Assembly: GCA_964016885.1 (NCBI GenBank)
Contig: OZ024743.1
Coordinates: 215,388,001 to 215,452,000 of the forward strand
Source of the DNA: Eledone cirrhosa
Lineage: Eukaryota
Direction: 5' to 3'
Length of the DNA: 64,000 bases
The translations under genes were made by a program, and so were the position numbers. Below are positions 19,130-58,300 of the stretch, one piece after another. Positions within the stretch are counted from its first letter, which is position 1, and every line of letters begins with the position of its first letter. The notes under the pieces are model-generated. The model did no database searches, was not told the origin of the DNA, and worked only from the letters and a program-made list of their open reading frames with translations.

Positions 19130-19296
19130 AACGAAGGAAATGTGGTAAGGAACCAGGTGGACAATAACGTCCCAAAGTACTCAATACTTAGGGTAGTAGA
19201 GTGGGTAATAGGAACGAGTAGGACCCCGACGGCTGAGCTCAAGCTTTTTCGACGGCTAATTCTTGAGCTCAGCCGTCGGGGTCCTACTCGTTCCTA
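19130..19296. mobile_element. family H tail with 35-bp perfect inverted repeat
   Basis: taggaacgagtaggaccccgacggctgagctcaag / exact reverse complement. Sister copies at 45106 and 58106. Confidence 0.8.
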
Positions 19297-19392
19297 TATA
19301 TATATATATATATATATATATATATATATATATATATATATATATATATATATATATATATAGAGAGAGAGAGAGAGAGAGAGAGAGAGAGA

Positions 19393-19800
19393 AATATACA
19401 CGGGTGTGTATGATTGTGTATAGATGATTATATTAATAAAAAGAAATCCAATTCGTTTTATTTACAATCCTTTAACATTTCTAATGGTATTAGAATGAAA
19501 TATGGTAGAATACTAAATGTTAAGTGTTAATTGAACAAGTACTTTCTTGCTTTCTCAATCTTCAGGTTCAAATTGTGTGGTGACAGTCAAGTTTGCAATT
19601 TTCAACTGTTGAAAATTGTAAACTTGACTGTCACCACACAATATGAACCTGAAGGTTGCGAAAGCATGAAAGTACTTGTACAATTAACACTTAACATTTA
19701 ATATTCTACCATAATATTTCATTCTAATACCATTATAAATTGTAAAGGATTGTAAATAAAACGGGTAAATCAGACAAAGTTGGAATTTCTTTTATTAATA
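19393..19800. mobile_element. family I palindromic element with an HHR on each arm (19531-19571 -, 19644-19683 +)
   Basis: Arms of about 190 bp centred at 19607. ttgaac-CTGAAGA-ttg(a/c)gaaagcaa-GAAA-gtac-TT-gttcaa. Confidence 0.8.
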
Positions 19801-19883
19801 TATATACATATATATATATATATACATATATATATACATATATATAAATATACATATATATATATACATATATATATATAGAT

Positions 19884-20362
19884 GAATATACACGGGTGTG
19901 TATGATTGTGTATAGAAGATTATATTAATAAAAGGAATTCCAACTTTGTCTGATTTACTCGTTTTATTTACAATCCTTTAACATTTATAATGGTATTAGA
20001 ATGAAATAGTATGGTAGAATCGCTTAACATTTAATATTCTACCATACTATTTCATTCTAATACCATTATAAATGTTAAAGGATTGTAAATAAAACGAGTA
20101 AATCAGACAAAGTTAGAATTACATTTATTAATATAGTGGATTGGCAGTGTCGGTAGAGTGTCGAACGCCATGCTTTGACGTATAGAGTTACGCCCCTTGC
20201 CATTATGAGTTCAAATCCCGCCGAGGTTAACTTTGCCTTTCATCCTTACGGGGTCGATAAAATAAAGTACCAGTAATGTACTGGATAATTACTGGCTTTG
20301 TGCCAAAAGTAGAAACAATTAATATAATCTTCTATACACAATCATACACAACCGTGTATATT
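19884..20362. mobile_element. second family I inverted pair, interrupted by a SINE
   Basis: Same tail sequence as 19393-19520 in both orientations. Confidence 0.75.
20136..20318 (+). mobile_element. full-length octopus-type tRNA-SINE with TSD attaatata
   Basis: tggcagtgtcggtagag A box, gagttcaaatcc B box, gcctttcatccttacggggtcgataaa core; 9-bp flanking duplication. Confidence 0.88.
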
Positions 20363-20649
20363 TATATATATATATATATGTATATATATATATATATGTA
20401 TATATATATATGTATATATATATATATATATGTATATATATATATATATATATATACATATATATATATATATATATATATATACATATATACAGAAATA
20501 TATATATATACATGTATATATATATATATACATATATATATATATATATATATATATATATATACATATATATATATACATATATATACATATATTCCTA
20601 TATATATATATATACATATATATACATATATATATATACGTATATATAC

Positions 20650-55748: not shown

Positions 55749-56615
55749 GTATATATATATATATATATGCACTAACATGATTGCTAGTTACGTAATGATT
55801 GCTAGATTGTACGTAACTAGCAATCATTTTAGTGCATCAACATGTTTAAATTTGTGTAAATATGTGTTACGTTTAGTAGCGTTAGAGGTAATGTAACACC
55901 ACATGCGTGGTGTAAAAAATGCAAACAACTAAATGTATATAATATATAGTTAAATTGTATGATGTGAAAGGTCTTTACAGGTCTAGAAAAGCATGAAAGT
56001 CCCATGAGTTTGTATACCAGTACAGGGATTTTCCGTAGAAATTAGAATGATTCATTGATATGTTTTGGTGTTCAAGGTGCACACGTCAAACGTGAACTTT
56101 GATATAGAAGAATGTTACACTCGGCAAAACGATGTGAGGCACTGTGAGTAGGTTAAAAGTGATATACTGCGCATTGGTTTGATTAGGTCGGTTGTCCAAA
56201 GACATTTACAAAATGATTTACTAAACATCTCTCGGCTTATTGCAGGGTATATCAGCTCTATATATTGGACATGTGGTGCAGTAACCTTCTATCTCTCTCA
56301 ATCCTTGTATATTTGTTCCTCATATATCGAAAATGACTTAAAGCTTATTTTTAAAAAAACTATGAGTAGCAGACGCAGATTATATGATGTTCCTGTAGGT
56401 GTATTTGCTAGTAGTACGTATTGTATAGAATATCTAAATAGCCGTCTGTGTGTGAAAAAATAGCGAATAATTGATAAATATTGTACTTCGCCAGCAAAAT
56501 AAATAATCTCACTAGAACACAATCTCTCTCTCCCTCGCTCTCTCTCTCTCTCTCTCTCTCTCTCTCTATCTCTCTCTCTCTCTCTCTCTCTCTCTTTCTC
56601 TCTCTCTCTCCGAAG

Positions 56616-56665
56616 GCATCACGACTTTAAACATTGTTATAGAGCGTATGACATGTTTTTCAAAG
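56616..56665 (+). CDS. candidate 50-nt host exon
   Basis: Follows a (TC)n tract with aag acceptor; perfect AAG|GTAAGT donor; open frame HHDFKHCYRAYDMFFK. Confidence 0.3.
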
Positions 56666-57245
56666 GTAAGTGTACATCGAAATTTGATTTGTTCTTTTAA
56701 ACACTGGATCAGTATTATTGGTCTTTGATTTTTATGTCATTTAAGAGAATATATTAAAAAGCCAAGGGTTCAAATCAAACAAACCTGGTGTACTCGTAGT
56801 AAAATGATGATCTATGTTCTATACTGCTTCGTCTATGTTGGATGTAAACGATGAAACACTCTTGTTTAGACGGTAATAGCAATTCTAGACTATTTAAGTC
56901 GATCTGATCTTGTTGAAAAATTCTCAGGAATACGCTTTACAGTAATTTACTTTTCAGTTTGCTGCCAGAAAAAATGTGTTTATACGCAAGTCATGAAAGA
57001 CAGCATACATCGGTTATGGCATTTTCTAAAAGAAGCTCGAAATTCTAAATCTGATTTTAGATCGAATATGTGTAGACTATGTTTATCAGTCGGTAAAAAT
57101 ACACTGAAAGTACTAGAACTGGGATTGGCCCTGCAGTGAGTAGCCTATGGCATTAGCCGAATAGCTGTTTACTGTGTGAGTCTTGAAGTACGCGTATGAA
57201 CTTATGCACAATTTTATATATACATATATATATATATAAATATAT

Positions 57246-57535
57246 ATGAATGTGTATATAGTGTATTTGGTAATACACTGTATTATTAATTAAAAGCATT
57301 TTGAAGACCTTACACTATTGTTTTAAGGGTAGTGGCTATGTCACTTACTCCTATTTTCAACAAACAAAGGGAGATAAGCTGACAGATCTCTGTTTCATAC
57401 TGTTGGTATTCCGCAGAGCTTAGCACAGCCCTTGTCTGTTGAAAAATCATGAATGTTTTAATAATCAGGAACTGATTACACAAAGCGGTTGCCGATCCAG
57501 CAAGAATTGAAAATTAGAATTGAGGAATTAGCTAT
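57246..57535 (-). mobile_element. PLE 3' fragment related to the 16036-16200 tail, with degenerate HHR (57377-57420)
   Basis: Shared gcattttgaagacc..ctattgtttt..gataagc; agct-CTGCGGA-atac caaca gtat-GAAAC. Confidence 0.6.
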
Positions 57536-58105
57536 ATTATATATTTATATATATATATATATATATATATATATATATATATATATATATATATATATAT
57601 ATATATAATATTCATAATATTCATATATATATATATATATATATATATATATATATATATATATATATATATATATATATATATATATGTATATATATAT
57701 ATATATATATATATATATATATATATATATATATATATATATATATATATATATATATATATAAAATATATATATATTATGTATATACATATTATGTATA
57801 TATATATATATATATATTATATATATATATATATATATATATATTACATATATATATATTATATATATATATTATCCTTATATATATATATTATATATAT
57901 TATATATATATTTTATATTTATATTTATTATATATATATATATATATAATATATATATATATATAAATATTATATATATATATATTATATATATATATAT
58001 ATATTATATATATATATATATATATATATATATATATATATATATATATATATATATATATATATATATATATATATATATATGTATATATATATATATA
58101 TATAT

Positions 58106-58300
58106 AACGAAGGAGTTGTGGTAAGGAACCAGATGGATCATAACACACCAGAGTACTCAATAATTAGGGTAGTAGAGTAGGTAATAGGAGAAAGTATGAC
58201 CCCGACGACAGAGCTCATGACGGTTCGGTGGCTATTTGTGGACGCAGAAATAGCCGTCGAAATGGCTCGAGCTCTGCCGTCGGGGTCATCCTTTCTCCTA
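58106..58300. mobile_element. family H inverted pair (diverged arms)
   Basis: Homologous to 19130-19296. Confidence 0.8.

Follow-up and report, generated by a model that had tools for sequence, protein, structure and literature searches.

Inverted Penelope-like insertions in a 64,000-nucleotide stretch of the Eledone cirrhosa genome mostly combine one long and one short end at (TA)n tracts

We analysed a stretch of 64,000 nucleotides from Eledone cirrhosa (assembly GCA_964016885.1, contig OZ024743.1, positions 215,388,001 to 215,452,000 of the forward strand), which is called the window in the following, with positions counted from its first nucleotide. Its DNA is AT-rich and of animal type and contains 56 TA tracts (as defined in this analysis) along with remnants of retroelements and short interspersed nuclear element (SINE)-type repeats. 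It contains 15 outward-facing inverted pairs of insertions whose outer ends lie on (TA)n and in which one arm (the short arm) lacks a terminal stretch, the tail, that is present on the other (long) arm. The elements are Penelope-like, with a reverse transcriptase (RT) together with a GIY-YIG endonuclease (EN) at the C-terminus, and hammerhead motifs occur in seven families. The inverted insertions into (TA)n probably arose by twin priming at two fixed internal sites, a near and a far end for each family, with each nicked strand priming one of them. The feature as such is a recognised hallmark of Penelope elements, and the proposed mechanism is mostly anticipated in print. Our data add tails of 76–140 nt, the T/A overlap with the target, the near-strict pairing of long and short ends, and the extension to Hydra-type and retrozyme-like families.

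Pairs were called from self-BLAST of the window and from junction walks. A preliminary description of positions 19130–58300 had reported stereotyped asymmetric inverted pairs there, in lettered families that were only partly given coordinates (G, I, M, E and N were assigned to loci by inference). Thirteen of our 15 pairs lie in this region, and the one at 44832–44979 is additional to those located before. A sixteenth pair (19885–20362) carries both tails, as had already been noticed, so that 15 of 16 pairs combine a long and a short end (p = 2.6e-4 under independent arm choice at 0.5). The tails of the 15 pairs measure 34, 40, 76, 77, 77, 77, 78, 79, 83, 87, 90, 124, 131, 140 and 229 nt; 12 are thus 76–140 nt long, two are shorter and one is an outlier. 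When 96 tract-facing ends were surveyed in a census, 10 of the 15 pairs were recovered, each of them asymmetric, and neither a symmetric outer pair nor a short-short pair was found among these ends; the three symmetric rows of the census are microsatellites inside arms. The two arms of a pair differ by 0–17%, and very young pairs (arms 99.8%, 99.1% and 98.6% identical) are asymmetric already.

In family H, which has three pairs at 19131–19297, 45105–45221 and 58107–58301, all short arms end at CCTAT, as described before (at 19297 in the first pair), and the tail is 77 nt in each case. Private variants are common to both arms of the locus in pairs 1 and 2, both arms of pair 2 start at the same base, and the arms of pair 3 are 83% identical. 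The common arm start of pair 2 (45105–45144) directly follows a GUC that resembles the hammerhead cut site of the copies in pairs 1 and 3, and the 5′ end of this insertion may be a self-cleaved RNA end. Two pairs of another family lie at 12865–13139 (long arm on the left, tail 229 nt, hammerhead at 13050 on the minus strand, and a 22-nt short arm whose end lies upstream of the hammerhead, away from the standard site) and at 18823–19107 (tail 83 nt, short arm extending 90 nt further in the 5′ direction than the long arm). Three of their four arms begin at about one 5′ point, which suggests a small non-autonomous element with a defined 5′ end. Family G is present at 19393–19802 (tail 40 nt, hammerhead at 19565, minus strand) and as the both-tailed pair at 19885–20362, where a SINE-type repeat (20136–20321) with an 8-nt target duplication sits exactly in the short-end site of the right arm. 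Its position at a G short-end site (20128–20330) may be accidental, given the AT-rich DNA, or mark a place that is easily cut.

The largest pair (22800–29826) consists of a 1.9-kb inverted short arm on the left and the main copy on the right, with a tail of 131 nt; its arms are 99.8% identical over their non-repetitive part and 97.8% identical over 1.9 kb including whole microsatellite tracts. A single-ended relative on the minus strand (45390–45703) ends at the same long site. At 33857–37921 the main copy is short-ended at 33857 and the inverted arm of 1.2 kb has a 34-nt tail. Family D (31178–31788) has a tail of 78 nt and the pair at 37979–38510 one of 140 nt. The family F pair (41238–43679; tail 87 nt; hammerheads at 41425 on the minus and 43579 on the plus strand) has arms that are 99.1% identical over 881 nt. 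Its end at 43679 and that of a single-ended relative on the minus strand (31833–32069, described as ending at 31832) are about 4 nt apart, close to the short site, in agreement with the preliminary description. Families J, I and M each combine an inverted long arm with a short-ending partial tandem: J (43763–44771) has a 493-nt unit, a tail of 79 nt and a hammerhead at 44524 (plus strand), I (46926–47960, tandem on the left) a 512-nt unit, a tail of 118–124 nt and a hammerhead at 47568 (minus strand), and M (50013–50849, tandem on the left) a 474-nt unit, a tail of 76–82 nt and, in the motif scan, two complete type I hammerheads (50239 and 50713, minus strand). Families D and J had been reported to break just before ACGGCTC. 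The positions are right (3 and 0–1 nt before this motif), and the two breaks count as one conserved site, since the two families have related sequences.

All 15 short ends share 2–7 nt with the (TA)n flank. Overlaps of at least 2 nt were found at 15 of 15 loci (null 0.26) and of at least 3 nt at 14 of 15 (null 0.13; binomial 8e-12, with loci of one family non-independent). The null was taken from random positions within the same arms; single substitutions were passed, the anchor was set by hand for one locus, and the limits of the long arms were hand-set. A stricter variant that halts at substitutions, which affects 5 of the 15 loci, gave at least 3 nt in 9 of 15. The long end is also internal: element sequence runs on past it where the body is visible, and T/A overlaps of 3, 3, 6, 1, 2 and 5 nt were found at six junctions. 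In six families, independent copies have their long ends at one and the same base or no more than about 4 nt apart. Of the proposal that the short arm ends at a fixed TA-like site, the T/A overlap stands for all 15 loci; the short arm at 12865–13139 ends at another site, and long ends are mostly TA-like as well. The missing tail is absent within 900 nt past the short end at 14 of 15 loci, the sole match being a neighbouring G copy. Only one of the 15 short ends has a poly(A) signal 10–30 nt upstream, and the window sequence has no poly(A) at any junction, which does not favour the idea that the short end is a poly(A) site. Folding of 13 tail regions gave no consistent stem-loop start signal (z from −3.6 to +0.4, 2 of 13 below −2). 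In several families a small hairpin closes 3–14 nt ahead of the long end (e.g., 19131–19160, 18823–18850, 19393–19412 and 29800–29826), with z-scores that are non-significant overall.

To follow the end sites beyond the window, we used public sequencing reads of one family, that of the Hydra-type Penelope-like element at 1623–6572 (plus strand). This locus is a partial tandem in which a 5′-truncated copy (1623–3332) precedes a near full copy; it terminates at a long site, and no inverted arm was seen. A single repeat-free stretch contains both end sites of this family, and the small pair at 44832–44979 (short arm on the left, long arm on the right, tail 90 nt, overlap 12 nt) belongs to it. Four of 16 listed runs were placed on positions 2960–3559 at 80% likeness; organism A, from which reads came, is perhaps not the species of the window (0.53 of words shared), and restriction site-associated DNA (RAD) reads carry amplification bias. 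Junctions to TA were found at the short end site (3238–3243, plus strand) in 134 contigs of run X1, 3 of X4 and 2431 reads of X14, and at the long end site (3330–3332, plus strand) in 107 contigs of X1, 1 of X4 and 578 reads of X14. Among the best 18 of 648 rows of loose ends, which we take to be the best supported in each run, 3243 and 3332 are the only ones with a TA consensus, in three runs and two labelled organisms; the remaining X1 loose ends in these rows have 7–41 contigs and a non-TA consensus. The read site at 3243 would correspond to the junction at 3238 in the window, extended across one mismatch. Read depth in X1 falls at both sites, from 2.47 million (3220–39) to 1.71 million (3240–59) and from 1.61 million (3300–19) to 0.027 million (3340–59), and is below 5% beyond 3340. 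In X1 the ratio of short to long ends is close to 1:1. The longest TA seeds of the tail, at 3265 (7 nt) and 3276 (8 nt), do not appear among the ends in the best 18 rows, so that the choice of site depends on more than TA content. The ends of this family thus form two peaks, whose places are not explained by the quality of TA seeds alone, and the bimodal 3′ endpoints predicted by the preliminary description are seen in its reads. Both end sites lie upstream of the start codon, the ATG at 3374 being 42 nt past the long end site at 3332.

The same reads contain opposite-strand joints, of which 14 were listed and 30 more exist beyond the list. In 5 of the 14 the second arm begins downstream of 3243, and in none of the 14 are both arms downstream. 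For the joints 3186>3239 (side 58) and 3213>3224 (side 31) the shorter side equals the distance to 3243, and the partner arm passes 3243. Taking a head-to-head orientation, the listed joints would be long-plus-short pairs whose arms, near the short site, overlap or leave a gap by as much as about 57 nt, in the manner of twin priming. In this orientation an overlap of arms, as reported before, is not required, since five joints have an arm starting downstream of the short site. None of the listed runs that carry this family is an RNA run, which is silent on expression either way, and the family H pattern had no match in metagenome contigs.

The coding remnants place two of the larger elements near the Hydra clade. 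The 1623–6572 locus had no Pfam match; its Atlas neighbours, at 0.96–0.98, include some with RVT_1 and GIY-YIG on 21–49% of members. Its open reading frame (ORF) at 3915–5504 has a CxCX5C linker upstream of the YIG motif (one match), and a DKT motif is found at residue 115 of the frame beginning at 3374. The W column of the RWK motif, conserved in at least 90% of 100 relatives, is mutated in this copy. The element at 22800–29826 shares 43% identity (E 6e-59) with the C-terminal portion of the ORF at 3915–5504. Its ORF remnant at 24678–25733 ends in a GIY-YIG-type domain in the same order, likewise with one match to the CxCX5C linker, and its N-terminal region is missing. The preliminary description had called this element Naiad; that identity requires an N-terminal GIY-YIG before the RT, and here the endonuclease closes the ORF, so that it is Hydra-type. 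The C-terminal EN, CxCX5C linker, DKT motif, hammerhead and (TA)n target described for the Hydra clade (PMC8557442) are all present in 1623–6572 as well, linker and domain order also in 22800–29826, and insertion of Hydra-type families into (TA)n is seen both in window junctions and in reads. The passages of PMC8557442 at hand on this clade mention neither tail nor pairing, and the Hydra label is given here from motifs.

The element at 33857–37921 retains ORF remnants at 35029–36663 on the minus strand, with Pfam matches to GIY-YIG (1.3e-6) and RVT_1 (3.2e-4, below the curated cut-off). Its ORF at 35029–36171 has a CX2-5CXXC linker at residue 249 and YIG at residue 300. These motifs make it a candidate Neptune-type element; the linker is also common to Nematis. 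A second Neptune-type copy at 16035–18298 is 93% identical to 34917–36103 and has another terminal module, which matches 57240–57384 (hammerhead-like motif at 57416); a swap of 3′ ends is possible.

None of the short families has an ORF. Hammerhead-like motifs are enriched in the window, with 15 matches compared to 1.9 in local shuffles (maximum 5 in 20). The final descriptor permits a palindromic helix III and one deviation and was run with its own shuffle control; two stricter scans gave 2 and 6 motifs. Eleven valid matches are in sense orientation toward the TA end, 24–189 nt upstream of the short site, and fall into seven families (1623, 12865/18823, G, F, J, I and M). Several have the small palindromic helix III known from Penelope ribozymes (PMC4209133). 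In the 1623–6572 family, a type I hammerhead-like motif with one core deviation lies in the pseudo-long terminal repeat (pLTR) at 3174–3214 (plus strand), with a predicted cut at 3214. A relaxed motif scan found no valid hammerhead in family D or at 37979, 22800 and 33857. In family H only the 3′ half of the motif is visible by eye, and a match in pair 3 was discounted, as it straddles the inversion joint. No hammerhead is among the 150 of 272 Rfam matches listed, which are dominated by microsatellite-driven miRNA matches below the gathering score.

The J, I and M loci, which have hammerheads in their tandem units and no ORF of 150 amino acids, resemble retrozymes lacking long terminal repeats (non-LTR retrozymes), which have been proposed to be non-autonomous Penelope derivatives (PMC7229834; bioRxiv 10.64898/2026.07.22.740005). 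Short tandem units, a type I hammerhead and the lack of a long ORF are common to both. In the passages available, the units of the published retrozymes are about 220–390 nt long, in contrast to 474–512 nt here, and the combination of a partial tandem with an inverted tailed arm differs from what the main text of PMC7229834 describes, which never uses the word 'inverted'. A miniature inverted-repeat transposable element (MITE) or other DNA transposon was rejected as the source of the pairs, the arms being unequal and 5′-truncated, with ribozyme motifs or RT remnants.

In the mechanism that we favour, the GIY-YIG endonuclease would nick both strands of the self-complementary (TA)n, and the RNA would be placed by the protein such that each 3′ end pairs through 2–7 nt of T/A with either of two favoured sites at the junction of pLTR and body. 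Two primers on one RNA could not occupy one site, which would give one long and one short arm. The two 5′-truncated cDNAs would then be joined head to head, with the overlap or gap set by the extent of each. Under this twin-priming scheme the pairing results from both primers sitting on one RNA. The common private variants of the arms and the microsatellite-rich 1.9 kb fit one template; two RNAs from one source locus fit too. A dimer is unnecessary for pairing if there is one RNA, and nothing in our data shows a dimer. The 22-nt arm at 13118 and further symmetric apices could be products of simple fold-back.

The main rival to twin priming is endonuclease resolution of an intermediate. Here both arms would first be tailed, or the second would be made by fold-back, and the endonuclease would then cut the new DNA at the short site and join it to the target. 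EN-mediated resolution has been proposed for the tail (PMC8557442), the Drosophila endonuclease is cited in PMC11167929 as needing the tail for recognition, palindromes at junctions have been interpreted as self-priming (PMC3846280), and several of our pairs have symmetric apices with identical arms (19393, 45105 and 12865). Resolution would likewise yield strict pairing. We nevertheless consider it unlikely: at least six loci (18823, 33857, 43763, 44832, 46926 and 50013) have arms of which neither can be derived from the other by simple fold-back, each holding sequence that the other could not supply; one arm is wholly within the tail in 5 of the 14 listed read joints; and in vitro mapping put both tail boundaries at RT start sites (PMC11167929). 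Two RNA forms with different 3′ ends, arising by polyadenylation or processing at the short end and each primed within an asymmetric dimer, are a somewhat weaker candidate still. A dimer is predicted for the lizard protein and RNA-seq reads end at the start sites (PMC11167929), and with two RNAs the kilobase overlaps of arms would be easy. The scarcity of poly(A) signals and the absence of poly(A) at junctions speak against this view, as do the predicted ribozyme cuts, which lie 24–189 nt from the short ends, and a free draw of RNAs alone would not give 15 mixed pairs out of 16.

It is far less probable that the pairs were originally symmetric and that one arm lost its tail afterwards, either through a deletion reaching the adjacent tract or through expansion of the microsatellite at a TA seed within the element. 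In favour of later loss, all short ends fall on a T/A motif, which microhomology-mediated deletion would also produce, the flanking microsatellites are unstable, and one pair retains both tails. The preliminary description had named this possibility, together with continuous endpoints, as the alternative to its proposal; neither agrees with the two-peaked ends, with tails absent up to 900 nt beyond the short end at 14 of 15 loci, or with the asymmetry of young pairs and the lack of short-short pairs in the census. The near 1:1 ratio in X1 and the skipping of longer TA seeds largely refute later loss for the family followed in reads. An artefactual origin of the inverted arms, as fold-back chimeras made during assembly or amplification, has the least to commend it and is hardly credible. 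The 99.8% identity of the 22800 arms over their non-repetitive part would suit such an origin, whereas arms that differ by 0–17%, family-specific ends and like opposite-strand joints in independent short-read runs do not.

A number of observations weigh against twin priming at two fixed sites or limit its reach. A single family was followed beyond the window, with 18 of 648 loose-end rows. In that family the RAD run is not 1:1 (2431 versus 578), and a non-TA loose end at 3291 has a uniform consensus in 819 RAD reads; this end may be a third junction or belong to a subfamily with another tail. Within the window, microhomology is weaker at the long end (1–6 nt), and the 22-nt short arm of the 12865 copy stops 146 nt upstream of where the short site lies in its relative at 18823. 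The pair at 19885–20362 breaks the asymmetry, and some insertions are single-ended, three at the long site (6645–6831, 18306–18750 and 45390–45703) and one at the short site (31833–32069). Neither the long nor the short type of arm consistently extends further, and arm overlaps of 0.9–1.9 kb require strand displacement, a tandem or circular RNA, or two RNAs. Families H, D and 37979 have no ORF and no valid hammerhead, so that their Penelope status is structural only, and 22800 and 33857 also have no valid hammerhead match. The in vitro starts reported in PMC11167929 lack homology to the cut DNA and do not differ between strands, and so lend no direct support to the microhomology and pairing steps proposed here.

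Much of the pattern agrees with what is known of Penelope-like elements, for which head-to-head arms, partial tandems, a tail that is the start of the body, a pLTR hammerhead and a (TA)n target have been described; the tail is often present on only one inverted pLTR or end (PMC3846280, PMC8557442). Published tails are typically, not strictly, 30–40 bp long, with a repeat of 34–37 bp in D. virilis Penelope (PMC2377424) and a tail of 31 bp in Adineta Pen2a (PMC2377424, PMC3846280, PMC8557442), in contrast to the 76–140 nt of 12 of our 15 pairs. They are also called 'optional', whereas the asymmetry is near strict here. The closest biochemical parallel is the Poseidon protein of the lizard Anolis carolinensis, which in vitro nicks and extends both strands of an AT-rich target and starts reverse transcription at two internal sites bounding the tail (PMC11167929), as we propose for the insertions in the window. 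The starts of Poseidon lie inside the ORF, unlike the end sites of the Hydra-type family upstream of the ATG, and they are strand-identical, where ours are paired as long and short and share 2–7 nt with (TA)n. The idea of two priming sites in the preliminary description, borne out by two discrete ends in the window and in the reads of one family, is therefore largely published already.

Twin priming of L1 (PMC2912911; bioRxiv 10.1101/2024.08.27.596794) is alike in that two target strands prime on one RNA, with microhomology at the internal primer and a head-to-head joint. It differs in starting at the poly(A) tail and a variable internal site, whereas both sites are internal and fixed here, without poly(A). 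A target site duplication around a whole insertion would be hidden in (TA)n. Inverted L1 insertions show an internal deletion in 66% and a duplication in 17% (283 of 1,703) of cases, so that the contrast drawn before, with L1 arms that do not overlap, was overstated; L1 duplications are short (median 22 bp), and overlaps reach 1.9 kb in our pairs. Neither a long-plus-short pairing rule nor tails above 40 bp were found stated in the literature passages available, which is weak evidence, as subscription papers were mostly outside the search.

Other repeats were found in the window. Two copies of another TA-flanked element (697–810 and 22651–22764) have the same end base, a hammerhead-like motif at 22637 and no inverted partner. 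At least six copies of one SINE-type repeat lie in both orientations within 2.2 kb (52340–54481). Direct repeats at 8391–8993, 9277–9881, 10149–10287 and 13537–13990 are 95–100% alike and have a common left boundary, with microsatellites between or abutting them; they adjoin long interspersed nuclear element (LINE)-like RT remnants at 10286–11899 and 14812–16100.

The analysis reveals no new class of element. For annotation, pairs of this kind resemble MITEs or genes for hairpin RNAs, and it is easy to place the ends of a family wrongly. The origin of the tandem and inverted ends of Penelope-like elements is an open problem according to PMC8557442, and the in vitro work of 2024 (PMC11167929) accounts for the tail, but not for its placement on one arm. 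Near-strict pairing over about a dozen families together with the two-peaked read map offers a simple, testable rule that joins the tail and its one-arm placement. More tentatively, and with somewhat less than even confidence, we suggest that long-plus-short pairing may be a general rule of Penelope-like integration, in which one ribonucleoprotein would use both nicked strands and two fixed sites of a single tandem or circular RNA in a T/A register of 2–7 nt. Such a rule would be conserved over Hydra, Neptune and retrozyme-like families, with the tail as a family-specific ruler of 34–140 nt.

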